DNA from: Bacteroidales bacterium
Lineage (GTDB): Bacteria > Bacteroidota > Bacteroidia > Bacteroidales > UBA10428
Assembly (NCBI GenBank): GCA_016934395.1
Contig: JAFGSZ010000057.1
Coordinates: forward strand, 19,421 to 83,420
Length of the DNA: 64,000 nt
Reading direction: 5' to 3'
Shown here: piece by piece, positions 36,423 to 64,000 of the stretch
Layout: the number at the start of each line of letters is the position of its first letter
Position numbering within the stretch: position 1 is the first letter of the stretch
Made by a program: the position numbers and the translations under genes
Notes under the pieces: model-generated
Seen by the model: the letters and a program-made list of their open reading frames with translations, nothing else
What the model was told of the DNA's origin: nothing
The model's database searches: none

Positions 36423-36423
36423 A

Positions 36424-37956: not shown

Positions 37957-37959
37957 ATC

Positions 37960-38732: not shown

Positions 38733-38751
38733 ATCTTAATATTAAATTGTT

Positions 38752-39309: not shown

Positions 39310-39322
39310 GTATGCAACCTTT

Positions 39323-41200: not shown

Positions 41201-41201
41201 C

Positions 41202-42386: not shown

Positions 42387-42395
42387 TTAAATCTT

Positions 42396-42830: not shown

Positions 42831-42840
42831 ATAATAATCC

Positions 42841-43275: not shown

Positions 43276-43286
43276 TGTAATAAAGT

Positions 43287-48639: not shown

Positions 48640-49260
48640 TTAATCTTTTGCTTTTATAAAAAACCCAATCTCTTCGAGCGAAGTAATAATATCGTAATTT
48701 TTTATATAAATTCCTGCAGGTAAATCAAGGTGCATTGAAGTAAAATTTAAAATACCTTTCACACCGGCATGAATTAATCTGTGTGCTGTATCTAACGCCA
48801 CATCCATTGGAAGTGTTAAAATTGCAATATGAATATTCAGTTCATCAACCTTTTTTCGGATATCTTTTATTGAAAAACATTCAATACCTGCAACTTTCCG
48901 GTTTATTTTTTTGGCATCCACGTCAAACCCCGCAACCACATTCATTTGTGTATTTGAATTACGAATAAATGTAGAAATGGCGCTGCCCAGGTTTCCCATG
49001 CCTATAATTGCTATATTATAACCTTTTTTATGATCTATAACACTTCCAATATGTGTAACCAATTCCTGTATGTTGTAACCCTTTCTGTGATTCCCGGATA
49101 AGCCGATCAGCATCATATCACGCCTTACCTGCACAGGAGTGAGGTTAAGTTGCAACGCCAGGTCGTGCGAAAAAATATGAGCTTCTTTAATATTTTTATA
49201 TTTTTCAAGTAACCGCCGATATTGGCTTAAGCGTTTTACAGTGCGTGGAGGTAGATCCAT
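48640..49260 (-). CDS. rex: Redox-sensing transcriptional repressor Rex (copy 2)
   Basis: RLSQYRRLL...PVQVRRDMMLIG...GYNIQEL and IAIIGMGNLGSAI. Confidence 0.88.
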   Translation of the reverse strand: MDLPPRTVKRLSQYRRLLEKYKNIKEAHIFSHDLALQLNLTPVQVRRDMMLIGLSGNHRKGYNIQELVTHIGSVIDHKKGYNIAIIGMGNLGSAISTFIRNSNTQMNVVAGFDVDAKKINRKVAGIECFSIKDIRKKVDELNIHIAILTLPMDVALDTAHRLIHAGVKGILNFTSMHLDLPAGIYIKNYDIITSLEEIGFFIKAKD

Positions 49261-49338: not shown

Positions 49339-51630
49339 ATGGGATCAAAAACAAATACTATTGCCAAACGGTTCATAATAAAAGGAAGAGTCCAGGGTGT
49401 AGGTTTCAGGCCTTATGTTTTTCGTCTGGCATACGAATACAGGCTGTCCGGATTTGTCTATAACCAAACAGATGCAATAGTTATAAAAGTGCAGGGCGAT
49501 TTATCGGATATCAATAAATTTTCTGCCGACCTGCCGGAAAGATTACCTCCTGCTGCCAATATAACCTCATTAAGTATAACTACAGAACCTGTTGAAAATA
49601 TTAAAACCTTCACGATTAAAGAAAGCCTGGACCTGAATGATGATATATCGGAAATTAGTCCGGATATCGCTGTTTGTAATGAATGCCTTGAAGATATTAA
49701 ATCACAACATCACCGGTTCAATTACCCCTTTATCAATTGCACGAATTGCGGGCCAAGATTTACCATTATTCAGGATTACCCCTACGACCGGAGAACAACA
49801 ACAATGGAAACATTTTCTATGTGCGGCACTTGTGAAAAAGAATATATAGATATACACGACAGGAGATTTCATGCCCAACCTGTAGCATGCAGTACTTGTG
49901 GTCCCCAATATGAATTGATTCAAAATTCAGTGTCCGTTTCGCGTATTCAGGAAATTATATTAAGGGTAAGTCAGCTGACAGAAGAGGGGAAAATAATTGC
50001 CATAAAAGGACTGGGGGGATTTTTTCTGATGTGTGATGCCTTAAATAATTCTGCCTCAAAAAAACTTCGTGATTCAAAAATACGCGAAGGAAAACCCTTT
50101 GCCGTAATGTTTAAAGATTTGAATACCATTGAGCAATACGCATTTGTTAATGAACAGGAAAAAAAGTCCCTTATTTCATGGCGACGCCCAATTGTTATCC
50201 TTGAGAAAAAGAAGGAACTTGCTCCTGAAGTAGGTAAAAACTTTAATACCATTGGCGCCTTTTTACCCTATATGCCCATCCATTATTTACTGTTCGAAAA
50301 ATTAAAAACCACGGCCATTGTTCTCACCAGCGGAAATATTTCCGATGAACCCATAATTATTGATAACCATAAAGCGCAGGCTGCACTTTCTCCTATATCT
50401 GATGCCTTACTGATTTACAATCGTGATATTTATAACCGCACAGATGATTCAGTTGTAAAAATCATAAATAACAAGGAACAGGTTTTCAGAAGATCGAGAG
50501 GATATGTACCGGAAGTTTTTGAGTTGCAGATCAATGCAGACTCCATTCTGGCTACAGGTGCAGAACTTGTGAATTGTTTTTGCCTGGGAAAAGGGAATAC
50601 AGCCATACTAAGCCAGCATATCGGCGATTTAAAAAATTATGAAACCTATGAATTTTACCTGGAATCCATAGAACGTTTTAAAAAATTATTCAGGATAAAA
50701 CCCACATTGATAGCTGCCGATTCCCATCCGGATTATCTGTCTGTGCGATATGCCCGTGAACTATCCCTGCCAATAGTGTTTGTACAGCATCATTATGCCC
50801 ATATTGTTTCGTGTATGGTAGAAAATCAGCTGAATACCCCGGTAATCGGAGTAAGCTTTGATGGAACGGGGTATGGTGATGATGGTAACATTTGGGGAAG
50901 TGAATTTTTAATCTGTGATTTAAAGGAGTACAAACGTGTTGCACATTTTGAATATATTCCATTGCCCGGTGGCGACAAAGCCACTGAAGAACCATGGCGT
51001 ACTGCAGTTTCATACTTGTATAAAATTTTTGGGAAAGAACTAACTTATTCAGACCTCCCTTTTCTAAAAAAAATTGATTCGAACACGGTAAGTCTGGTAA
51101 TCCAATCCATCGAAAAAAACATTAATTGTCCGCTAAGTTGCAGTGCCGGAAGATTGTTTGATGCTGTAGCAGCATTACTAAATATATGCCCTGTTTCGGA
51201 TTTTCATGCCCAGGCGCCCATGTTGCTCGAATCTGTTCTACAAAAAAATGTCACAGATTTTTACCGGATACATCAGGATGATACATTATCCTTTTTGCCG
51301 GTGATTCAACATATTCTGGATGATATGAAAAATCTGGTCCCTGTTTCTGTGATATCGGCAAAATTTCATAACACGGTAGCAGAAGCTATTAAGAAAACTG
51401 TATTATCGATCAGAGAAACTTCAGGATTAAATCAGATTGCCTTGTCCGGAGGAACATTTCAAAATAAATACCTTACAGAATGCGTGGTGCAAAAGCTCGA
51501 AAATCTCAATTTTAAAGTATATACCCAGCATCTTGTTCCGTGCAACGACGGGGGTATAGCACTGGGACAACTGGCTGTGGCTGCTGAAAAAAGGAAAAAT
51601 TCCAGGTTAAATGAACTTCAGGAGGGATAG
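49339..51630 (+). CDS. hypF: [NiFe] hydrogenase maturation carbamoyltransferase HypF
   Basis: Acylphosphatase domain (KGRVQGVGFRP), two zinc-finger pairs (CNECLEDI...NCTNCGPRF; CGTCEKEY...CSTCGP), and YrdC- and Kae1-like domains. Confidence 0.93.
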   Translation: MGSKTNTIAKRFIIKGRVQGVGFRPYVFRLAYEYRLSGFVYNQTDAIVIKVQGDLSDINKFSADLPERLPPAANITSLSITTEPVENIKTFTIKESLDLNDDISEISPDIAVCNECLEDIKSQHHRFNYPFINCTNCGPRFTIIQDYPYDRRTTTMETFSMCGTCEKEYIDIHDRRFHAQPVACSTCGPQYELIQNSVSVSRIQEIILRVSQLTEEGKIIAIKGLGGFFLMCDALNNSASKKLRDSKIREGKPFAVMFKDLNTIEQYAFVNEQEKKSLISWRRPIVILEKKKELAPEVGKNFNTIGAFLPYMPIHYLLFEKLKTTAIVLTSGNISDEPIIIDNHKAQAALSPISDALLIYNRDIYNRTDDSVVKIINNKEQVFRRSRGYVPEVFELQINADSILATGAELVNCFCLGKGNTAILSQHIGDLKNYETYEFYLESIERFKKLFRIKPTLIAADSHPDYLSVRYARELSLPIVFVQHHYAHIVSCMVENQLNTPVIGVSFDGTGYGDDGNIWGSEFLICDLKEYKRVAHFEYIPLPGGDKATEEPWRTAVSYLYKIFGKELTYSDLPFLKKIDSNTVSLVIQSIEKNINCPLSCSAGRLFDAVAALLNICPVSDFHAQAPMLLESVLQKNVTDFYRIHQDDTLSFLPVIQHILDDMKNLVPVSVISAKFHNTVAEAIKKTVLSIRETSGLNQIALSGGTFQNKYLTECVVQKLENLNFKVYTQHLVPCNDGGIALGQLAVAAEKRKNSRLNELQEG

Positions 51631-51683
51631 CCTTTGAATGATAAAAAAAAATTATCTTTAAATTTTAATAAAATACGATTTTT

Positions 51684-51923
51684 ATGTGTCTTGCTATTCC
51701 TGCAAAGGTTATTGAAATACACGGTGAAACTGCAAAAGTTTCTATTGGAGGAACTACCGTAAATATCGGACTGCAAATGGTTGATGACGTTCGGATCGGT
51801 GATTACGTCCTTGTTCATACAGGTTTTGCATTGCAAAAGATCAGTGAAGAAGAAGCAAAAGAAACCCTTGAGATCATTAAAGAATATGAACAATCATTTG
51901 ATCAGACCGATCAGAAAGAATAA
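51684..51923 (+). CDS. hypC: Hydrogenase assembly chaperone HypC/HupF
   Basis: The MCLAIPAKV N-terminus with the essential Cys2, 79 aa. Confidence 0.9.
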   Translation: MCLAIPAKVIEIHGETAKVSIGGTTVNIGLQMVDDVRIGDYVLVHTGFALQKISEEEAKETLEIIKEYEQSFDQTDQKE

Positions 51924-51937
51924 TGCTACAAGTTGGT

Positions 51938-53026
51938 ATGAAATACATTAATGAATTCAGAAATAAAAAAATAGTTGCTGATTTATCTGCTCAAATAGTA
52001 AAATTATCAAAATCAAAGATCACCTTAATGGAAGTATGTGGCGGGCATACTATGGCCATTCAGAAATTTGGTATCCCTTCGCTCCTGCCAGATACTATAA
52101 ACCTGATCTCAGGCCCGGGTTGTCCGGTTTGTGTTTCTTCGCGCAATTATATCGATAATAGTATACAGCTTGCCCGCTTTCCTGAAAATATAATTACAAC
52201 CTATGGCGATTTGATCAGGGTTCCCGGATCGCAGTCAAGTTTGGATATAGAGAAAGCCTCAGGGGCAGATGTAAGAATTGTATACTCAACACTGGATGCG
52301 CTTGAAATTGCCCGGAAGAATCCGGGCAAGAATATTATTTTTCTCGGTATTGGTTTTGAAACAACCACACCATCCAGCGCTGTCGCCATTCAGCAGGCAG
52401 CCAAAGAAAAGATTACAAACTTTTTTGTATACAGTACCCATAAAATTATGCCTCCGGCCATGGAAGCCCTCATTGATGAAGGAATACAAATCGACGGTTA
52501 TATCGGGCCGGGCCATGTTAGTACTGTGGCAGGATCACAAATGTACCGGAACCTGGTAAACAGGTTCCGCATTTCGGTGGTAATTTCAGGATTTGAACCG
52601 GTAGATATCCTGCAATCCATTTATATGCTGGTTAAGCAACACGAAACCCGGGATAAAAAAATCGAAATACAATATACCCGAACGGTGTTGCCTGAGGGTA
52701 ACCTTAAAGCCCGCAAACTTGTAGATGAGGTATTTGAGCCGCGTAATGACTGGTGGCGCGGATTGGGAATTATTTCAGACAGTGGATTAAAAATCAGGGA
52801 GAAATATGTTTTGTTTGATGCAGAAAAAAAGTTTAATCTTGAGGATAAAGAAATAAAAGAACCCGGGGGCTGCATCTGCGGCGAGGTATTAAAAGGCTTA
52901 AAAAAGCCTGTTGAATGCGGGTTGTTTAAAAAAGTATGTACTCCTGAAAATCCGGTTGGGGCCTGCATGGTCTCTAATGAGGGAGCTTGTAATGCGTATT
53001 TTAGATTTTCTGGTTATGAAGGATAA
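51938..53026 (+). CDS. hypD: Hydrogenase maturation protein HypD
   Basis: MKYINEFRN start and motifs CGGHT and GPGCPVCV. An alternative ATG at 51923 overlaps the hypC stop (TAATG). Confidence 0.9.
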   Translation: MKYINEFRNKKIVADLSAQIVKLSKSKITLMEVCGGHTMAIQKFGIPSLLPDTINLISGPGCPVCVSSRNYIDNSIQLARFPENIITTYGDLIRVPGSQSSLDIEKASGADVRIVYSTLDALEIARKNPGKNIIFLGIGFETTTPSSAVAIQQAAKEKITNFFVYSTHKIMPPAMEALIDEGIQIDGYIGPGHVSTVAGSQMYRNLVNRFRISVVISGFEPVDILQSIYMLVKQHETRDKKIEIQYTRTVLPEGNLKARKLVDEVFEPRNDWWRGLGIISDSGLKIREKYVLFDAEKKFNLEDKEIKEPGGCICGEVLKGLKKPVECGLFKKVCTPENPVGACMVSNEGACNAYFRFSGYEG

Positions 53027-54026
53027 AATTTTATTAGGACATGGCAGTGGCGGTAAAATGAGTGCAGACCTCATTAAAAATATATTTGTTAAAAATTTTA
53101 GCAATTCAGTTATTGAAGCGCTTACAGATTCGGCAATACTCAGTGTTGGAACCAGCAGTTTGGCTTTCACCACCGATTCGTATGTAGTGGACCCTGTTTT
53201 TTTCCCGGGGGGAAATATTGGTAAGCTGGCCGTTTGTGGCACTGTGAATGACCTGGCTGTCTCAGGCGCCGAACCCCTTTATTTGAGTGCATCTTTTATT
53301 ATCGAGGAAGGATTCCTGATCAAAGATTTGGAAACCATCGTACTCAGCATGAAAGATGAAGCCTGTGAAGCCGGAGTTAGTATTGTAACCGGCGACACTA
53401 AAGTTGTAAAAAAAAGACAATGTGACAAACTTTTTATAACAACTTCCGGGATTGGTATCCTGGAGCCAAAAAATGATCATATTGCCACAGGCAGCACTAT
53501 AAAAGCCGGCGATAAAATTATTGTAAACGGATACTTGGGAGATCACAGTGCAGCAGTGCTTATGGCCAGAAATGAGTTAAATGTACAATCGTCTGTAATT
53601 TCTGATGTAGCTCCTTTAAATGGTTTAATAAAAAATGCTATGGCAGGAAATACAATACGATTTATGCGTGATATTACACGTGGCGGACTGGCCACTATTC
53701 TGGCAGAAATTGTGGAAAATCATAATTTTGGTATTCGTATTTACGAAGAACATGTTCCGGTACGCCAAGAAGTAAAAGGGTTGTGTGAGATTTTTGGTTT
53801 CGATCCGCTTTACATGGCTAATGAAGGAAAACTGGTAGCCGTTGTCTCACCTGATTCGGCTGAATCGGTGCTTAAAAAAATGAGAAACCATAAATATGGA
53901 AAGCATGCAGCAATCATCGGAGAAATTACAAAAAACCATCCCGGTAAAACAGTAATGGAATCAATAATAGGTGGAAACCGGATTATTGATAAATTGGCCG
54001 GAGAACAGCTTCCACGTATTTGTTGA
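53016..54026 (+). CDS. hypE: Hydrogenase maturation protein HypE
   Basis: LGHGSGGKMS N-terminal motif, an AIR-synthase-like body and a C-terminal PRIC. The start at 53016 overlaps the hypD stop by 11 nt. Confidence 0.92.
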   Translation: MKDKILLGHGSGGKMSADLIKNIFVKNFSNSVIEALTDSAILSVGTSSLAFTTDSYVVDPVFFPGGNIGKLAVCGTVNDLAVSGAEPLYLSASFIIEEGFLIKDLETIVLSMKDEACEAGVSIVTGDTKVVKKRQCDKLFITTSGIGILEPKNDHIATGSTIKAGDKIIVNGYLGDHSAAVLMARNELNVQSSVISDVAPLNGLIKNAMAGNTIRFMRDITRGGLATILAEIVENHNFGIRIYEEHVPVRQEVKGLCEIFGFDPLYMANEGKLVAVVSPDSAESVLKKMRNHKYGKHAAIIGEITKNHPGKTVMESIIGGNRIIDKLAGEQLPRIC

Positions 54027-54032
54027 GAGCTT

Positions 54033-54440
54033 TTAATTGAAATATCCTGTATCATCATGTAAATATTTTCCTGCTTCCGAGGGGTTTTCAAAAAGTAAAT
54101 CATGTTCCTTACATCCTACCCGTGAACAAAAAATAATAACGCCCCCTCCTTCAATATCGAAACCAACCATTTTTGCGCTACACTCCGGACAAAATTTATC
54201 CGAGATCAGACTCTTATGACATTCAGGACAAAAAAACTTTGCAGAAATTCTGTCAGGAAGAGGTATGTTCGCTTTTCTTTCATAACAACCATACACAGGG
54301 CAGAGATGGATGATGCCTCGTTCACCTGCTATTTCGATATCTGCTCTAATTGCCGGCAGATTATGCAACTTTACATGGCTGTCCATTAATGACCTGTGGC
54401 ATTCCGGACATTTCACTGCTAAAGAAATTTGCTTCTCCAT
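54033..54440 (-). CDS. Cys-rich double zinc-ribbon protein of unknown function (paralog of 33731-34156)
   Basis: 135 aa with the same 10-Cys pattern as the paralog. It is convergent with hypE and divergent from hypA. Confidence 0.7.
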   Translation of the reverse strand: MEKQISLAVKCPECHRSLMDSHVKLHNLPAIRADIEIAGERGIIHLCPVYGCYERKANIPLPDRISAKFFCPECHKSLISDKFCPECSAKMVGFDIEGGGVIIFCSRVGCKEHDLLFENPSEAGKYLHDDTGYFN

Positions 54441-54699
54441 GGTTTAAAATTATTTAATTATTAGTTGAAAAATGCAGTGTAAGTGAATGGTATTTGAGTA
54501 TGAATAAGATGAAAAATTGTTATTCATTTTTTAATGAACTACCTCGCATAAAAGCTGACGAAGTATAACCAGGAAATTTTTTCCGTTTTTAGCTTTAAAA
54601 ATTATAATCTCTCTGATTTAAATAACGAGAATACAGAGTGGAAATTTTAATTAATCTATTTATTTATCTTTACTTTTTAAAAATTCTTATTCTGGTTAT

Positions 54700-55041
54700 A
54701 TGCATGAATTTTCAATAGCGCTCAATATCGTTAAACTCACTGAAGAAAACGCTAAAAAAGCCAATGCGAATAAGATTCTTGCCATCGATATTGAGGTGGG
54801 CAAATTTTCAGGCGTTGTAAACGATGCACTCCGGTTTGCCATGGAATCGGCAACAAAAGAAACCATGCTTGAACATGCACAAATAAACCTTATTGATAAA
54901 GAAGCGTGGGCAATATGCGAAGAATGCCACCATAAATTTTCAATTGAAAATTTTGCAGATGTTTGTCCTGAATGCCATTCGGTTCGGTATACCATTACTC
55001 AGGGAAAAGAACTCCGGGTTAAATCCATTGAAATTGAATAA
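54700..55041 (+). CDS. hypA: Hydrogenase nickel-insertion protein HypA
   Basis: The MHEFSIA N-terminus (Ni site) and a CEECHH...CPECHS zinc site, 113 aa. Confidence 0.9.
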   Translation: MHEFSIALNIVKLTEENAKKANANKILAIDIEVGKFSGVVNDALRFAMESATKETMLEHAQINLIDKEAWAICEECHHKFSIENFADVCPECHSVRYTITQGKELRVKSIEIE

Positions 55042-55134
55042 GAACTAAAATATCCTTCTTTCAGCAAATATTGACTTGTTCATTCACTTCATTTTTTCTA
55101 ATTTAGTCAATTCAACTTTTAATATTCTTGCTTT

Positions 55135-55950
55135 ATGTGCGATACATGCGGTTGCGGAAATTCAGATACAGAATACACACTTTTAAGGCCCGGCATGGCC
55201 GATGAGCACCTTTCAGCACATGCGCATGATCACTCACATGACCATCCGCATTCTCATTCGCACGATTCTTCTGAACATACACATCACCACGATCACGATC
55301 ACTCCCGGACATTAAATATTGAGCAGGATGCCCTGCAACAAAACAATCTTGTAGCAGAACGGAACCGCGGCTTTTTGGAGGCAAAAGAAATACTGGCCGT
55401 TAACCTGGTCAGTTCCCCGGGTTCGGGCAAAACCACATTACTTGAAAAAACGCTTGTTGACCTCTCCAGTTCACTCGGGTTTTTTGTTATTGAAGGCGAC
55501 CAGCAGACTGCCAATGATGCCGCAAGGATACAAAAAACCGGAGTTCCCGTAATACAGGTCAATACAGGCAGCGGGTGTCACCTGGATGCCGAAATGGTAT
55601 ATCGGTCGGTGAAAGAACTTAAAATTACCGATCATGCCGTTCTTATGATTGAAAATGTAGGCAACCTGGTTTGCCCTGCACTGTTTGATCTCGGCGAAAA
55701 ATTCAGGGTTGTCATCATCAGTGTTACCGAGGGGGATGACAAAGCGCTGAAATACCCTTATATGTTTCAGAGTTCCCATTTATGTATCATCAACAAAACC
55801 GATCTGTTGCCCTACGTTGACTTTGATGTGGAAAAATTTAAAGAATATGCGTTAAGAATCAACCATCACCTGGAATTTATTGAATTATCGGCAAAAAGCG
55901 GCGATGGATTGAATGATTGGTATTCCTGGATTAAAAAACAAACAAAATAA
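55135..55950 (+). CDS. hypB: Hydrogenase nickel-incorporation GTPase HypB with a His-rich tract
   Basis: N-terminal CDTCGC, a His-rich stretch (HAHDHSHDHPHSHSHDSSEHTHHHDHDH), the P-loop SSPGSGKTTL, and ENVGNLVCP. Confidence 0.92.
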   Translation: MCDTCGCGNSDTEYTLLRPGMADEHLSAHAHDHSHDHPHSHSHDSSEHTHHHDHDHSRTLNIEQDALQQNNLVAERNRGFLEAKEILAVNLVSSPGSGKTTLLEKTLVDLSSSLGFFVIEGDQQTANDAARIQKTGVPVIQVNTGSGCHLDAEMVYRSVKELKITDHAVLMIENVGNLVCPALFDLGEKFRVVIISVTEGDDKALKYPYMFQSSHLCIINKTDLLPYVDFDVEKFKEYALRINHHLEFIELSAKSGDGLNDWYSWIKKQTK

Positions 55951-56175
55951 TTCCCCATTATAATAATATTTCTTCCCAATACAATTTTCATTCTAAGAAT
56001 TTTTTTTTGTAAATGATAATTTTCAATTCAATAATCTTCAAAAAAAAATCCCAAAAAAAACAATAACTAGTAATAACAGATCATCAGTTCATACTCGATC
56101 GGGCATTTTAAGATGACAGCCACATTTGCATTAATATTATTTAGAAACATTATATATTGAGACTTACGTGATTTA

Positions 56176-56193
56176 TTGTTATTTAGATAACAA
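56176..56193. promoter_or_regulatory. Candidate Rex operator upstream of the [FeFe] sensory/hydrogenase cluster
   Basis: TTGTTAT-TTAG-ATAACAA is a perfect inverted repeat, 6/7 + 6/7 to TTGTTAAnnnnTTAACAA. It lies 56-73 nt upstream of the GTG at 56249. Confidence 0.55.
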
Positions 56194-56202
56194 CAAATTA
56201 TA

Positions 56203-56222
56203 TACCTTTGCGTATACATTTG
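56203..56222 (+). promoter_or_regulatory. Two tandem candidate -7 promoter boxes (TAnnTTTG)
   Basis: TACCTTTG (56203-56210) and TACATTTG (56215-56222) lie immediately downstream of the Rex-like palindrome. Confidence 0.35.
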
Positions 56223-56248
56223 AACCATAAAATTCAGGAACAAAAAAA

Positions 56249-56593
56249 GTGATTATAAGCGAAGTTTTAAAGTTGATCGATGGCAAGATAGTTGCCGGAG
56301 AAAAATACCTTTCAAGAGAAGTATCAAAAGCATTTTCATCCGATTTAATGAGTGATGTGCTTACCCTAGATACGGATGAAATTCTTTTAATTACGGGCCT
56401 GATTAATGTGCAGACTATCCGAACAGCAGAAATGGCAGAAATATCCTGTATCGCTTTCGTTCGTAATAAAAAAGTAACAAAAGAAATGGTAAGCCTGGCA
56501 GAAGTAAACCATATGGTGCTTATAGAATGCGCCTCTTCAATGTTCAGTGTCAGTGGAAAGTTATATCAGGCAGGTATTCAACCCGTATTTTAG
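56249..56593 (+). CDS. DRTGG domain protein (copy 1)
   Basis: 114 aa starting with GTG. The pattern SDLMSDVLTL...LITGL matches my memory of DRTGG-domain proteins found next to [FeFe] hydrogenase genes. Confidence 0.7.
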   Translation: MIISEVLKLIDGKIVAGEKYLSREVSKAFSSDLMSDVLTLDTDEILLITGLINVQTIRTAEMAEISCIAFVRNKKVTKEMVSLAEVNHMVLIECASSMFSVSGKLYQAGIQPVF

Positions 56594-56601
56594 AGTAAAG
56601 C

Positions 56602-57021
56602 ATGCATGCACAATACGAAATACAGGGCGGGGATTTCACAAAAGCCGGTTTGGCCTCAAGCGAAGTAAAAAAAATGTTGAAGCAATTGAACCTGGATCCG
56701 AAAATAATTAAACGTATTGCCGTTGCCATGTATGAGGCTGAAGTTAATGTTGTGGCACATGCTTACCATGGAATTATGGATATTGAATTAAATACAGAAA
56801 AAATAATTATAAAAGTTCAGGATACGGGTCCCGGTATAGCAGATATTGATAAAGCTATGGAAGAGGGATTTTCCACAGCTTCGAAAGAAGTAAGGGAAAT
56901 GGGATTTGGAGCCGGCATGGGTTTGCCCAATATAAAAAAAAATGCAGACGAGTTAATCCTGAACAGCAAAATTAACAAAGGCACTGAAGTAAAACTTGTA
57001 TTTTATCTGAATCATCAATAA
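56602..57021 (+). CDS. RsbW/SpoIIAB-like anti-sigma-type serine kinase (GHKL ATPase)
   Basis: 139 aa with the N-box region YEAEVNVVAHAY and G-boxes DTGPGI and GFGAGMGLPN. Confidence 0.75.
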   Translation: MHAQYEIQGGDFTKAGLASSEVKKMLKQLNLDPKIIKRIAVAMYEAEVNVVAHAYHGIMDIELNTEKIIIKVQDTGPGIADIDKAMEEGFSTASKEVREMGFGAGMGLPNIKKNADELILNSKINKGTEVKLVFYLNHQ

Positions 57022-57022
57022 A

Positions 57023-58384
57023 ATGGCTGACCATACATTTCATCACGCATTAAAAATACTGGAGGAGGTTTGCATCGGATGTACCCATTGTATGCAGGCC
57101 TGCCCTACAGAAGCTTTGCGTGTACGAAACGGGAAAGCTGTTTTAAATAAAAACAAATGTGTAGATTGTGGTGAATGTATGCGGGTTTGCCCTGTTAACG
57201 CCATAACCGTTGAACAGGATGATTTTGAGGATATTTTTAAATTTAAGGTAAGAATTGCCCTGGTTCCGTCCGTTTTTATCGGCCAGTTTGCCAGAAATAT
57301 TCCCACCCGAAAAATATACAGCAGTATTCTTGAACAGGGTTTTACCCATGTTTACGAAGCCGAACACGGGGTAAACATATTAATAAATGCTGTTAATTCA
57401 TATCTCGATAACAGAAAAGAAATAAGACCTGTGATCTCTTCATTTTGCCCGGCCATAGTGCGTATGATACAGGTAAGGTTTCCTAACCTGGCAGAAAACA
57501 TCATGTTGTTAAAAGCCCCGTTGGATATTGCTGCTTTATCATATCGTAAAGTGCTGAATGAACGTGGTTACAACGATGACGAAATCGGTATTTATTATAT
57601 TACCCCTTGCGCCGCAAAAATTGCTGCAGTAAAAAGCCCGGTAGGTGAATTATCTTCTGCCATAACCGGCGTTATCAGGCTCGATTCGTTGTATAATAAA
57701 GTTTATTCATCCATTAAAAAAGAAGTAAACTCAAGTTGTATTGTTCCTGAAAAAGAACAGTTAAAACCGCGTGAAATGACCTGGAGCCTTACAGGAGGGG
57801 AATCACGGTTTATTAACGGCAGAAGCCTGGCAATCGATGGAATTAATAATGCCATAGAATTTTTAGAAAAAATTGAAAACGGCAGTATCAGCAATTTTGA
57901 TTTTATTGAGTTGCGGGCATGCGACGAAAGTTGCGCCGGGGGCATTCTTTCTGCCAATAACAGGTTTCTTGTTAGCGAAAGGCTAAAAGAACGGGCAAAA
58001 CAGTACAAACTGGATAAAAAAGAAGGGAAAATTATTAACAATAAAACCATCCGGCAAAACACAGAATACCTGCTGGACCATATTTCTATTGATGAAGTAA
58101 AAGCACGATCGGGACTGATGCTTGATGAAGACATGAATGCTGCCCTGAAAAAGATGGAGAAAATCCGGCAGTTCACCAACTATCTTCCCGGTATAGACTG
58201 TGCAGCATGTGGTGCTCCGTCTTGTAAAACACTGGCAGAAGATATTGTACAGGGAAATGCAAAAACATTGGATTGCATTTTTGTGCAATATGCAATAAAC
58301 CGTCAGGAAAGCAGCGAAAAAATGAATGACCAGATGGAGAAAATCTGGGGAACGGAAAAACTTAATAAACTAGCGGGCTCATAA
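57023..58384 (+). CDS. [FeFe]-hydrogenase-like putative sensory protein (2x[4Fe-4S] + H-domain + C-terminal 4-Cys FeS domain)
   Basis: CIGCTHCMQACP and CVDCGECMRVCP. Degenerate H-cluster motifs are SSFCPAI (F141-C142), TPCAAK (C196, K199) and ELRACDESCAGG (C300, C304). The C-terminal segment is CAACGAPSCKTLAEDIVQG...C. Confidence 0.85.
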   Translation: MADHTFHHALKILEEVCIGCTHCMQACPTEALRVRNGKAVLNKNKCVDCGECMRVCPVNAITVEQDDFEDIFKFKVRIALVPSVFIGQFARNIPTRKIYSSILEQGFTHVYEAEHGVNILINAVNSYLDNRKEIRPVISSFCPAIVRMIQVRFPNLAENIMLLKAPLDIAALSYRKVLNERGYNDDEIGIYYITPCAAKIAAVKSPVGELSSAITGVIRLDSLYNKVYSSIKKEVNSSCIVPEKEQLKPREMTWSLTGGESRFINGRSLAIDGINNAIEFLEKIENGSISNFDFIELRACDESCAGGILSANNRFLVSERLKERAKQYKLDKKEGKIINNKTIRQNTEYLLDHISIDEVKARSGLMLDEDMNAALKKMEKIRQFTNYLPGIDCAACGAPSCKTLAEDIVQGNAKTLDCIFVQYAINRQESSEKMNDQMEKIWGTEKLNKLAGS

Positions 58385-58395
58385 ATAATAAGAAT

Positions 58396-58728
58396 ATGAA
58401 TATTATTACTATCATCGATAAACTCGGATTAACACAACTTTCGGAAATTTTTAACCCGGAACAGGAAATTAATGGCGGGTATACTTCCGATTTATTAAGC
58501 GATGTAATGGGCAATGCTTCAGAGGGTGAAGTTTGGATTACCATGCAAACCCACAAAAATATTATTGCGGTAGCCAGCTTAAAAGAACTGGCAGCTATAA
58601 TAATAGTAAACAATCACAAACCTGAAAAAGATACGATAGAAGCAGCCGAAAAAGAACAAATACCCTTATTGGGAACAAATAATGGCGCATTCGAAATATC
58701 GGGTGAAATTTATAATTTATTAAAATGA
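58396..58728 (+). CDS. DRTGG domain protein (copy 2)
   Basis: 110 aa with the pattern SDLLSDVMGN...VWITMQTH. Confidence 0.7.
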   Translation: MNIITIIDKLGLTQLSEIFNPEQEINGGYTSDLLSDVMGNASEGEVWITMQTHKNIIAVASLKELAAIIIVNNHKPEKDTIEAAEKEQIPLLGTNNGAFEISGEIYNLLK

Positions 58729-59466
58729 ATGAAACAGTTTCGGGCTGATTTACACATTCATAGCGTTCTTTCTCCTTGCGGGTCACTGGACATGAGTCCG
58801 CAAAATATAATAAAAACAGCCCGTGAAAGGAATATTAACATACTTGGATTAACCGATCACAATACAACAAGGCATTGTGAAATCCTGGAAAAGCTGGGAA
58901 AACCTTACGGGATATTCGTTTTACCGGGAGTGGAAATTACCACAAAAGAAGAAATTCATTGTCTTGCGTTCTTTGAAAATATTGAAAAAACTGAGGAGTT
59001 TGAAAAGTATCTTACTATTCATCGCTCATCAATAAAAAACAGGCCGGATATTTTTGGCGACCAGCCTGTAATTGATGAAAATGAGCATATTGTTGAAATA
59101 ATTAAAACTGTGCTTACTGCTGCCCTTGATGCTGACCTGAAAAATATTGAGCAGAAAGTGCACGAATTAAACGGATTGTTTATTCCTGCACATATTGAAA
59201 GAGCTCACTACGGAATGATCAGTCAGATAGGATTTATCCCTGCAGATTTGGAGATGGATGCTGTTGAAATTCAACTACTCCATAAAATGGATTTAACATT
59301 AAAACAACAACTTGAATCCTTATCATTAACAATAATCCGTGGATCGGATGCACATACGCCGGAACAAATCGGCAGCAGAACCACCACTTTTTTGTTAAAC
59401 GACCTAAGTTTTCAGGAAATAAAACTTGCTCTTCTAAATAAAAACGGAAGAAAAGTATTGCTGTAA
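58729..59466 (+). CDS. PHP-domain phosphoesterase
   Basis: ADLHIHSVLSPCG, LGLTDHN, and a later GSDAH motif. Confidence 0.85.
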   Translation: MKQFRADLHIHSVLSPCGSLDMSPQNIIKTARERNINILGLTDHNTTRHCEILEKLGKPYGIFVLPGVEITTKEEIHCLAFFENIEKTEEFEKYLTIHRSSIKNRPDIFGDQPVIDENEHIVEIIKTVLTAALDADLKNIEQKVHELNGLFIPAHIERAHYGMISQIGFIPADLEMDAVEIQLLHKMDLTLKQQLESLSLTIIRGSDAHTPEQIGSRTTTFLLNDLSFQEIKLALLNKNGRKVLL

Positions 59467-59467
59467 T

Positions 59468-60010
59468 ATGAAAGACCTGTCGTTACATATTCTGGATATT
59501 GTGCAAAATTCTTTGCATGCAGGGGCAACAAGGGTAGATATCAGCATTACTGAAGATGTTGTAAAAAATATTTTTGAAATAACAATTAAAGATAACGGGT
59601 CTGGTATCGATCCGGGAAACTCTGAAAAAGTTACCGATCCATTTTATACAACAGGAACAAAAAAGAAAGTCGGATTGGGATTGGCGTTACTAAAACAAAA
59701 TGCAGAAGCTGCAGGTGGCTTTTTAAAAATTGAAAATTCGTTTCCCCGGGGAGTAAAAGTAACCGCAAGGTTTCAGCATAATCATATTGACCGCCAGCCG
59801 CTGGGGAAAATCGAAGAAACCATTAAAATATTGATGACCGCTATAAACCTGAGACTTATTTATTCGCATGAATACAACGGAAAAATTTTTGTGTTGGATA
59901 CGCTGGAAATAGAGGATGCGCTGGAAACTAAAAACTTATCCAATCCGAAAATAGTGAAATATATTACTGAAATGATTATCGAAAACCTAACAGATATTGG
60001 AGCTTATTAA
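59468..60010 (+). CDS. GHKL-type ATP-binding protein (histidine-kinase-like ATPase without an H-box)
   Basis: LDIVQNSLHAG (N-box), IKDNGSGI (G1) and GLGLALL (G2). No HisKA domain is present. Confidence 0.75.
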   Translation: MKDLSLHILDIVQNSLHAGATRVDISITEDVVKNIFEITIKDNGSGIDPGNSEKVTDPFYTTGTKKKVGLGLALLKQNAEAAGGFLKIENSFPRGVKVTARFQHNHIDRQPLGKIEETIKILMTAINLRLIYSHEYNGKIFVLDTLEIEDALETKNLSNPKIVKYITEMIIENLTDIGAY

Positions 60011-60050
60011 TCTTTAACAAGACTATAAAATTTTAAAACAAATTATAAAA

Positions 60051-60452
60051 ATGGGAAAAATAAAAACCTTAGCTGATTTGCGCAAAATGCGTGAGAAGCT
60101 TAAATCGGAAACCGACTTAAGGGACAAGAGTGAGCATCCCGAAGATATGGTACAAATTAAGGTGGCCATGGCAACCTGTTGTATTGCTTCCGGATCAAGG
60201 GAAACAATGAACTATATCGTTGATGAACTGGAAAAGCGAAATGTTGATGCCGTTGTTACCCAAACCGGTTGTATGGGTTATTGTTATGCCGAACCCACTG
60301 TGGAGGTTACTGTTCCGGGTAAAGAACCTATTGTTTTTGGTTATGTGGATGAAAAGAAGGCGAATGAGATTATTGAACGCTACATAAAAAACGGGGAACT
60401 GGTTGAAGGGATCATTCCAATGAATTACCGAAGTATTGAAGAAACAAAATAA
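60051..60452 (+). CDS. Thioredoxin-like (2Fe-2S) ferredoxin, HydD-like small subunit
   Basis: 133 aa with MATCCIASGS and TGCMGYCYAEP motifs. It lies directly upstream of hydB. Confidence 0.75.
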   Translation: MGKIKTLADLRKMREKLKSETDLRDKSEHPEDMVQIKVAMATCCIASGSRETMNYIVDELEKRNVDAVVTQTGCMGYCYAEPTVEVTVPGKEPIVFGYVDEKKANEIIERYIKNGELVEGIIPMNYRSIEETK

Positions 60453-60467
60453 ACAGGAGGGAAAATA

Positions 60468-62261
60468 ATGTCAGGATATAAAATACATTTACTGGTTTGC
60501 GGGGGTACCGGATGTAAAGCCTCTTTAAGCACAGCAGTAGTTGAAAACTTAAACCACGAAATAAAAACCCAGGGGCTTGATGATTTTGCCCAGGTGGTTA
60601 CTACAGGATGTTTTGGATTCTGTGAAAAAGGGCCGATTGTTAAAATCATTCCCGACAATACATTTTACGTTCAGGTAAAACCCGAAGATGCACGGGAAAT
60701 TGTTGAGGAACATATAGTAAAAGGAAGAAAGGTGGAGCGGCTTCTTTATCACGATCCTGATAAAGAAACTATTGTCAGCGACTCCAAACATATGAATTTT
60801 TATAAAAAACAGGTTCGTATAGCCCTCAGGAATTGTGGCGTTATTGATCCGGAAAATATCGATGAATACATTGCCAGAGATGGTTATAAAGCCCTGGGTA
60901 AAGTGCTTTCCGAAAAAACACCCGAAGAAGCAATTAAGCTGATCAAGGATTCAGGTTTGCGTGGCCGCGGCGGTGGAGGATTTTCTACCGGAATGAAATG
61001 GGAACTCGCTGCTAAAAATATAAGCGACGAAAAATATGTGGTGTGTAATGCTGATGAAGGTGACCCCGGTGCATTTATGGACCGGTCTATTCTTGAAGGT
61101 GATCCGCATACCGTGGTGGAAGCGATGGCCATTTGTGGATACTCCATTGGTTCAAATTATGGCCTGGTATACATTCGCGCCGAATATCCGCTTGCAATTG
61201 AACGTTTAAAAACAGCCATAAAGCAGGCCCGCGATTACGGATTACTGGGAAACAACATTCTTGGAACCGGGTTTAAATTCGATATAGAACTTCGATACGG
61301 AGCGGGCGCTTTTGTTTGTGGTGAAGAAACAGCCCTGATACATTCTATGGAAGGAAGCCGCGGCGAACCGACTATGAAACCGCCATTCCCTTCCGACTCG
61401 GGATATCTTGGTAAACCAACCACTGTAAATAATGTAGAAACATTTGCCAATATCCCGGTAATAATCAATAAAGGAGCAGCATGGTTCAGCAGTATTGGAA
61501 GTGAAAAAGCAAAAGGCACCAAGGTTTTTGCCCTTGCCGGGAAAATAAACAATGTAGGCCTTATTGAGGTGCCCATGGGAATCACTTTGCGTGAAGTAAT
61601 TTTTGAAATCGGCGGTGGAATTAAAAACGGTAAAAAATTTAAAGCCGTACAAACCGGTGGCCCTTCGGGAGGCTGTTTAACAGAAAAACATCTGGATACG
61701 CCCATCGATTATGATAATCTTATTGCTGCCGGTTCCATGATGGGATCCGGAGGTATGGTGGTAATGGACGAAGACGATTGTATGGTGGATGTGGCAAAAT
61801 TTTTCCTCGACTTTACCGTAGAAGAATCCTGCGGTAAATGCGCACCCTGCCGCATCGGGAATAAACGGTTACATGAAATTCTTGAAAAAATAACAAAAGG
61901 AAATGGTACCCCTGAAGATATTACCAGGCTTATAAATCTGGGAACCGTAATTAAAGACACTTCTCTGTGTGGCCTGGGACAAAGTTCTCCTAACCCGGTG
62001 CTCGCCACAATAAATAATTTTATGGATGAGTATACCGCACATATTGAAGATAAAAAGTGCCCGGCCGGAGTATGTAAAGCCCTGATGAAGTATGAGATTG
62101 TAGATGAAAATTGTGTGGGGTGTACCGCCTGCGCAAGAGCATGTCCTGTGGGAGCCATCACAGGAGAAAGGAAAGAGATTCATCATATTGATACGTCCTT
62201 GTGTATTAAATGCGGAGCATGTATTGATCGGTGTAAGTTTAATGCAGTTATAATAAAATAA
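60468..62261 (+). CDS. hydB: NuoF-like NAD(H)/FMN subunit of a bifurcating-type [FeFe] hydrogenase (HydB)
   Basis: N-terminal 2Fe-2S (VCGGTGC...TGCFGFCEKGP), GRGGGGFSTGMKWE, ESCGKCAPCR, and C-terminal CVGCTACARACP and CIKCGACIDRC. Confidence 0.92.
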   Translation: MSGYKIHLLVCGGTGCKASLSTAVVENLNHEIKTQGLDDFAQVVTTGCFGFCEKGPIVKIIPDNTFYVQVKPEDAREIVEEHIVKGRKVERLLYHDPDKETIVSDSKHMNFYKKQVRIALRNCGVIDPENIDEYIARDGYKALGKVLSEKTPEEAIKLIKDSGLRGRGGGGFSTGMKWELAAKNISDEKYVVCNADEGDPGAFMDRSILEGDPHTVVEAMAICGYSIGSNYGLVYIRAEYPLAIERLKTAIKQARDYGLLGNNILGTGFKFDIELRYGAGAFVCGEETALIHSMEGSRGEPTMKPPFPSDSGYLGKPTTVNNVETFANIPVIINKGAAWFSSIGSEKAKGTKVFALAGKINNVGLIEVPMGITLREVIFEIGGGIKNGKKFKAVQTGGPSGGCLTEKHLDTPIDYDNLIAAGSMMGSGGMVVMDEDDCMVDVAKFFLDFTVEESCGKCAPCRIGNKRLHEILEKITKGNGTPEDITRLINLGTVIKDTSLCGLGQSSPNPVLATINNFMDEYTAHIEDKKCPAGVCKALMKYEIVDENCVGCTACARACPVGAITGERKEIHHIDTSLCIKCGACIDRCKFNAVIIK

Positions 62262-62270
62262 ATATCAAAA

Positions 62271-64000
62271 ATGGAAAAGGTAAAACTCACTATAGATAAT
62301 AAAACGGTTGAAGTGGAAAAGGGAACCACTATTTACAAAGCAGCTAAAACTATTGGTATTGATATTCCGGTGCTTTGTTATATGGATCTTGGAGACCTGA
62401 ATATAGAAAATAAACCCGGGGGATGCCGCATGTGTTCTGTTGAGGTGCAGGGAAGAAGAAATCTTGCCCCTTCATGTGCCACAGACGTTTTTGATGGAAT
62501 GGTAGTCAATACCCATTCTATGCGTGTGTTGAATGCCCGAAGAGTAGTTATGGAACTTATTCTTTCCGATCACCCGAAAGATTGCCTGGTATGCCCGAAA
62601 TCAGGAAATTGTGAATTGCAAAGCCTCGCCAATAAACTTGGAATACGTGAAATTCCCAACCAGGATATTGCTGAAATGTCTACCTATCGTAAGGATTTTT
62701 CACCAAGCATTATCCGCGATATGGACAAATGTATTATGTGCCGCAGGTGCGAGACTATGTGTAACGAATTTCAGACAGTAGGAGCGCTTTCAGCAGTTAA
62801 CCGTGGTTTTATGTCTGTGGTTGCCCCGGCATTTGAAATGGACCTTGAAGATTCCGTATGTACCTATTGCGGACAATGTGTGGCTGTTTGCCCAACCGGC
62901 GCCCTCACTGAAGTAAACCATACCAACAGGTTGATCCGCGACTTGTCGAATCCGAATAAAACCGTTATCGTTCAGACAGCTCCGGCTGTAAGGGCCGCAC
63001 TGGGTGAAGAATTCGGACATAAGCCCGGAACCCTGGTAACCGGAAAAATGGTTTCTGCACTCAAACAATTGGGATTTCACCATGTATTTGACACTGATTT
63101 TGCTGCCGATCTAACTATTATGGAAGAAGGTACCGAGTTGCTTAGCCGCCTGACCAGGCATTTAAATGGTGACAAAAGCGTTAAACTACCTATGTTAACA
63201 TCTTGTTGTCCGGGATGGGTTAACTTTTTTGAATCCCAGTTTACCGACATGCTAGATATTCCTTCAACCGCAAGGTCACCCCAACAAATGTTTGGTTCTA
63301 TAGCAAAGACTTATTTTGCAGATTTAATAAATATACCCCGCGAAGATCTGATTGTAGTATCTATAATGCCCTGCCTGGCTAAAAAATACGAATGTCAGCG
63401 CGATGAATTTAAAGTGGATGGAAACCCGGATGTAGATTATTCGATCTCTACAAGGGAACTTGCCCACCTTATTAAAAGAGCCAACATCGATTTTGATTCC
63501 CTTTCTGAAGAAGATTTTGATCAGCCACTGGGAGAGTCAACAGGAGCTGGTGTAATATTCGGTACTACAGGTGGCGTTATCGAAGCAGCTGTGCGAACAG
63601 CTTACGAATTGCATACAGGAAAAACCCTGCAGGATGTAGATTTTAAAGAACTCAGGGGAATGGATGGAATACGCCATGCCACCATAGATTTTGACGGGCA
63701 ACCCATAAATATTGGTATTGCCCACGGATTGGGAAAAGCAAGACAATTACTGGAAGGTATTCGTAACGGCACATCTGAATTTCACGCTATTGAAATTATG
63801 GCCTGCCCCGGTGGTTGTATTGGTGGCGGTGGTCAACCATTACATCATGGTAAATTTGAAATTCTGCAAAAACGCATGGAAGCCATTTACCAGGAAGACA
63901 AAAACAAACCGCTGCGTAAATCGCATGAAAATCCATATATTATAAAACTGTATGAGGAATTCCTGGGCAAACCGATGAGCGAAAAAGCCCATAAATTGTT
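62271..64000 (+). CDS. hydA: [FeFe] hydrogenase catalytic subunit HydA (group A, M3 architecture), 3' end truncated by the window
   Basis: My own translation from the ATG at 62271 gives 2Fe-2S (LCYM...GGCRMCSVEV), HPKDCLVCPKSGNCELQ, CIMCRRCETMC and CTYCGQCVAVCP. All three canonical H-cluster motifs are present: TSCCPGW, MPCLAKKYE and EIMACPGGCIGGGGQP. The frame stays open to base 64000. Confidence 0.93.
   Translation, partial: MEKVKLTIDNKTVEVEKGTTIYKAAKTIGIDIPVLCYMDLGDLNIENKPGGCRMCSVEVQGRRNLAPSCATDVFDGMVVNTHSMRVLNARRVVMELILSDHPKDCLVCPKSGNCELQSLANKLGIREIPNQDIAEMSTYRKDFSPSIIRDMDKCIMCRRCETMCNEFQTVGALSAVNRGFMSVVAPAFEMDLEDSVCTYCGQCVAVCPTGALTEVNHTNRLIRDLSNPNKTVIVQTAPAVRAALGEEFGHKPGTLVTGKMVSALKQLGFHHVFDTDFAADLTIMEEGTELLSRLTRHLNGDKSVKLPMLTSCCPGWVNFFESQFTDMLDIPSTARSPQQMFGSIAKTYFADLINIPREDLIVVSIMPCLAKKYECQRDEFKVDGNPDVDYSISTRELAHLIKRANIDFDSLSEEDFDQPLGESTGAGVIFGTTGGVIEAAVRTAYELHTGKTLQDVDFKELRGMDGIRHATIDFDGQPINIGIAHGLGKARQLLEGIRNGTSEFHAIEIMACPGGCIGGGGQPLHHGKFEILQKRMEAIYQEDKNKPLRKSHENPYIIKLYEEFLGKPMSEKAHKL

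Follow-up and report, generated by a model that had tools for sequence, protein, structure and literature searches.

How sensory [FeFe] hydrogenases relay an H2 signal is an unsolved question, and a 2026 study still calls for the interaction partners of the sensory enzyme to be identified (PMC13104023). The partial pressure of H2 steers the fermentation balance in guts, rumens, digesters, and syntrophic consortia, and electron-bifurcating hydrogenases are the main valve for H2 control of fermentation. The question is raised here by a cassette of six open reading frames (ORFs), g1 to g6, at 56249-60010 (+) of a 64,000-nt stretch from a Bacteroidales bacterium (contig JAFGSZ010000057.1, positions 19,421-83,420). 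We refer to this whole stretch as the window, and all coordinates are window-based. A first-pass annotation, made from the sequence alone, had read the six genes as an H2-sensing kinase/phosphatase or partner-switching circuit that could act on the adjoining hydrogenase, with signalling partners that had never been worked out; on the last point, the 2026 paper agrees. We found that the locus is a further member of a known cassette type, not a new system, and that its phylum is unremarkable. It is almost certainly an ortholog of the group D HydS cassette, and this cassette is probably a regulatory sensor of H2 or redox state. Our best composite reading, whose functional steps we infer and to which we give an even chance, is an H2-sensing complex with a post-translational output to the hydrogenase HydABC, on top of transcriptional control by Rex.

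The sensor hydrogenase, its companions, and the adjoining enzyme

Group D (M2e) enzymes keep the H-cluster cysteines, have the proton-transfer Cys and the flanking M353 and M497 replaced, and carry a C-terminal four-Cys cluster and no PAS domain (PMC8163306). In a profile search, g3 was found to contain two Fer4 domains, Fe_hyd_lg_C (76.8 bits), and a C-terminal PF04060 FeS domain at residues 388-420; the search detected no PAS domain, and the protein ends at residue 453. The H-cluster cysteines of g3 (C142, C196, C300, and C304) were present without exception among 32 diverse homologues and 79 Bacteroidales orthologs. The proton-relay Cys (C299 of CpI) is replaced by F141, M353 by T194, and M497 by R298, and the motifs around these substituted positions are SSFCP, TPCAAK, and ELRAC; the Arg is invariant across the Bacteroidales orthologs. 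Eight N-terminal Cys residues account for two [4Fe-4S] clusters and a C-terminal CxxCx4C...C cluster matches PF04060, with the cluster cysteines again invariant in the 32 diverse homologues. In line with the first-pass annotation, g3 is of the group D/M2e type without PAS: it carries the full published signature, and its gene lies upstream of a bifurcating-type HydABC. The assignment rests on the published signature residues, and TamHydS, the group D enzyme of Thermoanaerobacter mathranii, was compared through its own published residues.

Two DRTGG proteins flank the ATPase and sensor genes. With the profile search, g4 matched DRTGG at 26.4 bits (cut-off, 25.2), and g1 fell below the Pfam DRTGG model, with a weak match to PucR alone. 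However, g1 and g4 are paralogs (BLASTP E value of 4e-13), most g1 orthologs carry PF07085, and the predicted structure of g1, with a predicted local distance difference test (pLDDT) score of 96, aligned to the DRTGG protein AF1212 (2IOJ) with a template modeling (TM) score of 0.85 and to the DRTGG domain of a CBS-pyrophosphatase (3L2B) with a score of 0.75. The DRTGG nature of g1, which the first-pass annotation had asserted, is therefore established through paralogy, orthologs, and predicted fold, although its own sequence misses the Pfam model. Invariant motifs are SDLMSDV, TGL, and VRxK in g1 and SDLLSDVM in g4. The invariant SDL[LM]SDV common to both paralogs lies at a strand-to-helix junction, and T49-G50, R72, and K74 of g1 are further invariants at other strand ends. 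We regard the SDL[LM]SDV and TGL motifs as the likeliest candidates for acceptor or ligand sites of the DRTGG proteins. The idea that g1 and g4 are disguised STAS phospho-acceptors was ruled out by the g1 fold search, which returned DRTGG folds only and no STAS among the 50 matches listed. Among the fold matches listed, no CheY-like entry spoke for a receiver-like interpretation of the conserved D, T, and K of g1.

Both g2 and g6 are GHKL ATPases that keep the N, G1, and G2 boxes, which are invariant among orthologs. The g2 protein matched HATPase_c_2 above cut-off (43 bits) and scored 64.5 bits against TIGR01925 (SpoIIAB; cut-off, 135) and 27.5 bits against RsbW (cut-off, 145). Its best solved relative is SpoIIAB 1TH8 (E value of 6e-8); the catalytic Glu, Mg-binding Asn, and G-boxes are all retained. 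The partner-switching circuit of the first-pass annotation is not of the canonical kind, as the cassette has no STAS protein, PP2C, or sigma factor: a STAS domain was not matched in any cassette protein by profile search, and no sigma factor was found in the cassette, the window flanks, or the flanks of cassettes that lack neighbouring hydrogenase genes (described below). The g6 protein matched HATPase_c with 56 bits, and by sequence it is a histidine-kinase catalytic domain related to KinB and ZraS. It begins at the N-box and is therefore without DHp or H-box. Profile searches gave no match to HisKA in g6 and none to Response_reg in the cassette, and both members of a two-component pair, the DHp/H-box histidine kinase and its receiver partner, are absent from the cassette. 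The predicted structure of g6 (pLDDT score of 87.6) has a second alpha/beta domain and aligned over its full length to the ATPase-plus-transducer modules of MutL, PMS2, and TopoVI-B, with modest TM scores of 0.45-0.57. Since the model matches clamp ATPases over its full length, a nucleotide-driven clamp role for g6 appears as plausible as a kinase role.

The metal ligands of g5 (H9, H11, D43/H44, E69, H77, H155, D207, and H209) were all invariant in 23 orthologs from several phyla. In a profile search of solved structures (E values up to 1), the nearest relatives were Endonuclease Q, nucleotide phosphoesterases, pAp phosphatases, RNase AM, and the PolC PHP domain, together with YcdX and HisJ-type proteins. 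This departs from the kinase/phosphatase circuit first proposed, in that g5 lies nearest to nucleic-acid and nucleotide phosphoesterases and not to the known PHP protein phosphatases, and the term "protein phosphatase" for g5 is an assumption. An anti-phage defence reading of the locus by PADLOC, which came from a weak PHP match to Ppl alone, was rejected.

The enzyme encoded directly downstream was assigned by comparison with solved complexes. HydB matched HydB of the HydABC complex 7Q4V with an E value of 1.6e-258 and is also similar to 8A6T, named electron-bifurcating; HydA matched the bifurcating HydA1 (8A6T_A) with an E value of 9e-181 and keeps the canonical TSCCPGW, MPCLAKKYE, and EIMACPGGCIGGGGQ motifs. 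An M3-type HydA thus stands beside a NuoF-like HydB with extra FeS domains, two subunits as expected of an electron-bifurcating HydABC (group A3). The small protein g7 is a free-standing paralog of the N-terminal [2Fe-2S] domain of HydB and matches only the thioredoxin-like half of the NuoE model. No NuoE-like HydC was found within the window; a NuoE-like gene lies 3′ of hydA in 46 related Bacteroidales loci, and its equivalent here would fall past the window end. Since g7 occurs in cassette-linked hydB operons and not in second-copy hydC-hydB(-hydA) operons, it is not HydC; on sequence grounds, g7 is an extra HydD-like subunit. We note that in several Bacillota loci HydB is ∼1010-1040 aa long (L081 7001-10027, L083 11864-14917, L089 5218-8349, and L091 11903-14965) and has a C-terminal extension of ∼470 aa that lies outside our profile models.

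All six ORFs of the first-pass annotation were present on the forward strand, separated by gaps of 8, 1, 11, 0, and 1 nt and followed directly by the 2Fe-2S protein, hydB, and hydA. Its domain list was borne out by the profile searches except for g1. Because the ORFs, the domains, and the similarity to HydABC all fit, we consider the cassette confirmed, with two corrections: the evidence for g1 is indirect, and the window has no NuoE-like hydC.

Distribution, modularity, and gene fusions

A search with one genome per species gave 80 Bacteroidales and Lentimicrobiaceae loci. Distant representatives then served as new queries for other phyla, with which >579 loci matched, and 168 loci were annotated with profile models of g1-g9 and the NuoE-like HydC; these locus counts are not phylogenetically independent. 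The order g1-g9 was kept in most of the 80 Bacteroidales loci and in many other phyla. Among the matches listed, the same genes were found in Syntrophomonadaceae, Thermoanaerobacterium, Dethiobacter, Sporomusa malonica, and other Bacillota, in Syntrophorhabdales, Desulfobacterota, Armatimonadota, Cloacimonadota, and Acidobacteriota, and in Chlorobiaceae, Synergistaceae, Coprothermobacterota, and Spirochaetia, and cultured gut carriers include Parabacteroides gordonii and P. segnis. As judged from gene order, the arrangement is far beyond chance. The first-pass annotation had thought the cassette notable in a Fibrobacteres-Chlorobi-Bacteroidetes (FCB) genome; with carriers in many phyla, about 80 Bacteroidales species-level genomes, and cultured Parabacteroides, its location there is ordinary. 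Group D hydrogenases with adjacent kinases, upstream of bifurcating hydrogenases, had been noted in papers from 2012-2013, and for Firmicutes the literature places the group D genes a few genes before the bifurcating ones. A discussion of DRTGG or PHP partners with hydrogenases was not found in the literature searched, and locus-tag searches gave genome surveys alone.

Across the 168 annotated loci, the nearly universal core was g1-g2-g3-g4-g5. In 12 loci, g1-g5 stand alone, with no g6 or hydABC nearby and with unrelated housekeeping genes as neighbours, and no conserved regulator was found among the neighbours of cassettes that lie apart from hydABC. The sixth gene behaves differently. It was present in 88 of the 91 loci where hydABC adjoins the cassette, and g6/g7 precede 99 cassette-linked hydB genes, whereas 32 second-copy hydCB(A) operons in the same loci are without both. 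The Bacillota loci have g6 placed after hydC and before the small 2Fe-2S gene (hydD). From these gene neighbourhoods we conclude that g6 is tied to hydABC and the extra 2Fe-2S subunit, which is a new observation. Rumen 'Ca. Limimorpha' and related metagenome-assembled genomes (MAGs; L044-L067) carry the triads swapped, as g4-g5-g6 ... g1-g2-g3, and detached from hydABC; this split and reordering shows that the two triads are separable units. In three of these loci (L044, L045, and L062), hydC/hydB genes were detected nearby on the opposite strand. Parabacteroides carries g1-g6 without adjacent hydABC.

Other arrangements were seen around the cassette. Many Bacteroidales (L014-L035, L131, L132, L144, L156, L165, and others) have a second hydC-hydB-hydA operon without g6/g7 immediately upstream of g1, so that the sensor cassette is flanked by two bifurcating-type hydrogenases, one of each type. 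Seven Bacteroidales loci show the pattern g5 g6 g7 g8 g9 gC g6, in which an extra g6-like ATPase gene follows hydC downstream of hydA. In a Bacillota MAG (L083, 1876-4179), a HydS-like protein of 768 aa that carries a fused histidine-kinase ATPase domain is encoded ∼3 kb upstream of a group D cassette, which places two sensor types side by side.

Gene fusions were found between several cassette genes. Fusion of g4 to the C terminus of HydS (g3~g4) was seen in four of the genome loci and also in four protein clusters (50% identity) and is solid across multiple lineages. The g1~g3 fusion was seen in 2 clusters (P0172/P0173), g2~g3 in one lineage (P0178/L091), g1~g2 in an isolate Thermoanaerobacterium genome (L084), and g5~g6 and g6~g7 once each (L164 and L089, respectively). 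This pattern, which is new here, suggests a chain of likely contacts among the cassette proteins: 1~2, 1~3, 2~3, and 3~4, and separately 5~6 and 6~7.

Predicted Rex sites and the proposed output of the cassette

In the 300-nt AT-rich stretch before g1, we predicted a Rex operator 9 nt upstream of a TAnnTTTG box, which we take to be the Bacteroidetes -7 element and which occurs at a similar distance in most orthologous loci (Table 1). Rex-type sites were found upstream of g1 in 26 of 77 Bacteroidales loci, at a density of 1.26/kb versus 0.039/kb elsewhere in the same loci (∼32-fold), and in 34% of g1-upstream regions versus 8% of low-GC control windows. In 10 other loci, which come from several phyla, rex directly adjoins the cassette or hydA. 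The two rex genes of the window encode paralogs that are ∼30% identical; they are divergent and flank an alanine dehydrogenase/PNT-family gene at 47484-48599 (+). The first-pass statement that the window holds no DNA-binding output domain does not stand, given these two repressor genes and the Rex-type operator in the cassette promoter. Within the cassette, a DNA-binding gene was not matched by profile search, and none is conserved beside cassettes. Binding of Rex upstream of the orthologous hydrogenase operon has been shown for C. thermocellum by DNA affinity purification sequencing (DAP-seq) and electrophoretic mobility shift (EMSA) experiments, and the Rex-bound unit in C. thermocellum and C. 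bescii is a five-gene cluster, Clo1313_1885-81 and Athe_1295-99, respectively (PMC8457756, which also cites the consensus TTGTTAANNNNTTAACAA); for this cluster we infer, from how the genes are arranged in Bacillota, the order hydC-g6-hydD-hydB-hydA. The supply of the operon is probably set by NADH/NAD+ through Rex, which leaves the cassette free to act at another level.

Table 1. Coordinates of the cassette, the adjoining hydrogenase genes, and the Rex-related features in the window
Feature	Coordinates	Strand	Basis or remark
g1, DRTGG-fold stand-alone protein, 114 aa	56249..56593	+	Paralogy to g4, PF07085 matches of orthologs, predicted structure
g2, SpoIIAB/RsbW-like GHKL serine-kinase-type ATPase, 139 aa	56602..57021	+	HATPase_c_2, TIGR01925, SpoIIAB 1TH8
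g3, group D (M2e) HydS-type [FeFe] hydrogenase-like sensor, 453 aa	57023..58384	+	Fer4 x2, Fe_hyd_lg_C, PF04060
g4, second DRTGG protein, 110 aa	58396..58728	+	DRTGG profile match, paralog of g1
g5, PHP-family metal-dependent phosphoesterase, 245 aa	58729..59466	+	PHP and PHP_C matches
g6, DHp/H-box-less ATP-binding domain of histidine-kinase type, followed by an alpha/beta domain of 75 aa at the C terminus, 180 aa	59468..60010	+	HATPase_c
g7, small thioredoxin-like [2Fe-2S] protein, HydD-like, 133 aa	60051..60452	+	Profile searches
g8, HydB, NuoF-like flavoprotein subunit, 597 aa	60468..62261	+	Profile searches, similarity to 7Q4V
g9, HydA catalytic subunit, cut by the window end	62271..64000	+	Canonical motifs, similarity to 8A6T
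Rex-type operator palindrome TTGTTATTTAGATAACAA (predicted)	56176..56193		2 mismatches to consensus TTGTTAANNNNTTAACAA, one per half-site
Bacteroidetes-type -7 promoter box TACCTTTG (TAnnTTTG)	56203..56210	+	Read from sequence; 39 nt upstream of the g1 start
rex, 206 aa, candidate operon repressor	48640..49260	-	Put_DNA-bind_N and CoA_binding
Second rex paralog, 203 aa	46687..47298	+	Put_DNA-bind_N and CoA_binding

A scan of 55800-64000 for sigma-70 promoters and terminators gave the same counts as shuffled sequences, Bacteroidetes promoters being outside the coverage of that scan. Elsewhere in the window, two Rex boxes (33521-33538 and 33653-33670), one of them perfect, TTGTTAATTTTTTAACAA, and the other close to consensus, lie in the 5′ region of a gene at 31673-33481 (-), which encodes a 602-aa NuoE-NuoF fusion with 2Fe-2S_thioredx, Complex1_51K, and NADH_4Fe-4S domains and is a probable further member of the Rex regulon. 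The window as a whole is a hydrogen-metabolism island, in which a group-4 membrane-bound [NiFe] hydrogenase/Mrp-like cluster (Complex1_49kDa plus NiFeSe_Hases and two Proton_antipo_M subunits) adjoins the maturation genes hypF-C-D-E-A-B, at 34700-44200 (-) and 49339-55950 (+). Between hypE and hypA, on the opposite strand, lies a cysteine-rich 135-aa ORF (54033-54440, -) with repeated CPEC/CxxC pairs and no Pfam match.

Our composite reading runs as follows. HydS would bind an H-cluster and report H2 or redox state, as TamHydS does in vitro, while assembled with g2, the SpoIIAB-like ATPase/kinase, and with the DRTGG paralogs g1 and g4 in a single complex. H2 would alter a nucleotide-dependent modification or binding state in this complex, with g2 writing a mark on the DRTGG proteins and the phosphoesterase g5 erasing it. 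The H-box-less ATPase g6 would then dock on the extra [2Fe-2S] subunit g7 and pass the state to HydABC(D), tuning the activity of the enzyme and not its transcription. Separately, Rex would read NADH/NAD+ and set transcription of the nine-gene unit through the promoter operator. A post-translational output to HydABC, which the first-pass annotation had also raised, fits because g6 is placed amid the structural genes of the hydrogenase and is fused once to g7, and the cassette itself has no DNA-binding domain; the output step is the conjectural part of that earlier proposal, and we give its passage through g6/g7 somewhat less than an even chance. The fully specified switch, which dispenses with STAS and PP2C and uses DRTGG partners of a sensor-bound SpoIIAB-like kinase, a nuclease-like PHP eraser, and a DHp-less ATPase coupled to the [2Fe-2S] subunit of HydABCD, is rather doubtful as a whole. 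If true, it would be the first case of an electron-bifurcating hydrogenase gated post-translationally by its own product, H2.

Several observations weigh against this reading. Signalling in vivo has no experimental demonstration for any group D enzyme; TamHydS has been studied in vitro as an H-cluster enzyme that is catalytically active and only "putatively" sensory, and H2 leaves the redox state of its C-terminal cluster unchanged (PMC13104023). No phospho-acceptor was identified, g1 is not STAS-like, and g5 is closest to nucleases and nucleotide phosphoesterases, with no CpsB/YwqE-type protein phosphatase among its matches (E values up to 1). The g6 model is compatible with an ATP-driven clamp of the MutL/TopoVI-B kind in place of a kinase. 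Cassettes apart from hydABC, as in Parabacteroides, 'Ca. Limimorpha', and the orphan g1-g5 loci, show that the output is able to work in trans and that its target is not necessarily HydABC. Finally, the g1~g2, g2~g3, g5~g6, and g6~g7 fusions are each confined to a single lineage, and the linkers of the last two are 3-6 residues, so that these two could stem from a lost stop codon or from misassembly; the phylogenetic dependence of the locus counts belongs here as well.

The alternative that survives best is transcriptional partner switching in trans, which we consider unlikely. The g2 protein would be an anti-sigma factor or anti-regulator bound to a sigma factor or repressor from another locus, perhaps Rex; competition by the DRTGG proteins, governed by their modification state, would set that factor free, so that the output is gene expression and not enzyme activity. 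This accords with the anti-sigma F factor SpoIIAB being the best family and structure match of g2, although g2 lies far under the SpoIIAB and RsbW equivalog cut-offs, and with the cassettes found far from hydABC, which suit a diffusible regulator. The recurrence of rex as a neighbour, in 10 other loci besides the window, and the altered adhE transcript levels upon deletion of the group C hfs sensor (PMC5707799) point the same way. However, a sigma factor, STAS, or DNA-binding gene is not conserved in or beside the cassette in any phylum examined, and the confinement of g6 and g7 to cassette-linked hydrogenase operons is left unexplained.

Accessory machinery is a less probable explanation. HydS would be a slow catalytic hydrogenase or an electron entry point, and the ATPases, the PHP protein, and the DRTGG proteins would serve assembly, repair, or nucleotide gating of HydABCD in a chaperone- or clamp-like manner. 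The location of g6 inside the structural gene block in Bacillota, its single fusion to g7, and its full-length alignment with the MutL/PMS2/TopoVI-B ATPases would suit such machinery, but g1-g5 persist in 12 loci without a nearby hydrogenase, and purified bifurcating HydABC enzymes from other organisms function, as far as is known, without the cassette proteins. As for HydS itself, TamHydS shows catalytic activity, and H2 cannot be read from the redox state of its C-terminal cluster (PMC13104023), yet the group D active-site pocket has no proton pathway and resembles that of sensory group C (PMC8163306).

Least probable of all is nucleotide signalling, in which a writer would make and the PHP protein destroy a nucleotide-derived signal or a nucleotidyl protein modification (e.g., AMPylation), with the DRTGG domains as nucleotide-binding receivers: the nearest relatives of g5 (Endonuclease Q, RNase AM, pAp phosphatases, and the PolC PHP domain) are all phosphodiester or nucleotide enzymes, DRTGG domains occur in the regulatory region of the nucleotide-regulated CBS-pyrophosphatase (3L2B), and the invariant SDLMSD sits at a strand-to-helix junction, a typical phosphate-binding place, but a nucleotide cyclase or nucleotidyltransferase domain is absent, GHKL domains are not known to make such signals, and the substrate range of PHP proteins is unreadable from homology at such distance.

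The value of the comparison lies in a testable wiring diagram, with a predicted four-protein sensor complex, a predicted contact between an ATPase and a hydrogenase subunit, and invariant motifs to mutate. Cultured or genetically tractable hosts of the cassette include Parabacteroides gordonii, Thermoanaerobacterium, C. thermocellum, and Sporomusa.

Comparison with known systems

The same logic, in which a crippled hydrogenase senses H2 and a coupled kinase controls hydrogenase supply, is known from the [NiFe] sensor system HoxBC-HoxJ-HoxA of Cupriavidus necator (PMC5707799). Its proteins are unrelated, however: HoxJ, which has a PAS-like domain, is a complete histidine kinase, and HoxA is a DNA-binding response regulator, whereas the cassette is without H-box, receiver, or DNA-binding output. 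The SpoIIAB-SpoIIAA-SpoIIE and RsbW-RsbV-RsbU modules also combine a small GHKL serine-kinase-type protein with ∼110-aa alpha/beta proteins and a metal-dependent phosphoesterase. Those modules use STAS, PP2C, and a sigma factor, and in their stead the cassette has the DRTGG fold, PHP, and a g2 that scores under the equivalog cut-offs.

Closer are the group C (M2f) PAS-HydS systems, represented by Thermotoga maritima HydS, Ruminococcus albus HydS, and Thermoanaerobacterium hfsABCD, in which the sensor-type [FeFe] hydrogenase has a C-terminal [4Fe-4S] cluster, as does g3. The phosphatase of the group C system is of the PP2C type. Genes for a protein Ser/Thr kinase and a phosphatase accompany the sensor gene in these systems, and fermentative or bifurcating hydrogenases are encoded nearby, a context comparable to that found here (PMC5707799, PMC3561251), and hfs genetics in Thermoanaerobacterium indicate a regulatory role, with different regulatory phenotypes for deletions of sensor genes and of kinase/phosphatase genes (PMC5707799). 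The present cassette differs from group C: PAS is missing, a PHP phosphoesterase replaces the phosphatase, and both a pair of DRTGG proteins and a second ATPase, without H-box, are present.

At the level of transcription, the locus resembles the Rex regulon of fermentative anaerobes, with an 18-bp TTGTTA-N6-TAACAA palindrome in the promoter and rex genes nearby. The predicted Rex site precedes the sensor genes here, whereas in C. thermocellum and C. bescii the Rex-bound unit is the five-gene hydrogenase cluster (Athe_1295-99), located downstream of the Athe_1292 sensor gene.

The closest counterpart is TamHydS, which has the same layout as g3, with two N-terminal [4Fe-4S] clusters, an H-domain, a C-terminal four-Cys cluster, and no PAS. 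Like g3, it is without the proton-relay Cys and has a hydroxyl residue at the M353 position (Ser in TamHydS and Thr in g3), but it has Leu at the M497 position where g3 has Arg. Its gene, Tmath_0862, lies upstream of a bifurcating HydABC (Tmath_0865-0869) with a histidine-kinase-like ATPase nearby, as here (PMC8163306, PMC3608648). The operons differ in the position of hydC, which follows hydA in Bacteroidales and lies between the PHP and ATPase genes in the TamHydS-type operon. The g3 protein is about 35-40% identical to its Bacillota homologues, and the Thermoanaerobacterium loci L084 and L111 hold the same g1-g9 genes as this Bacteroidales locus.

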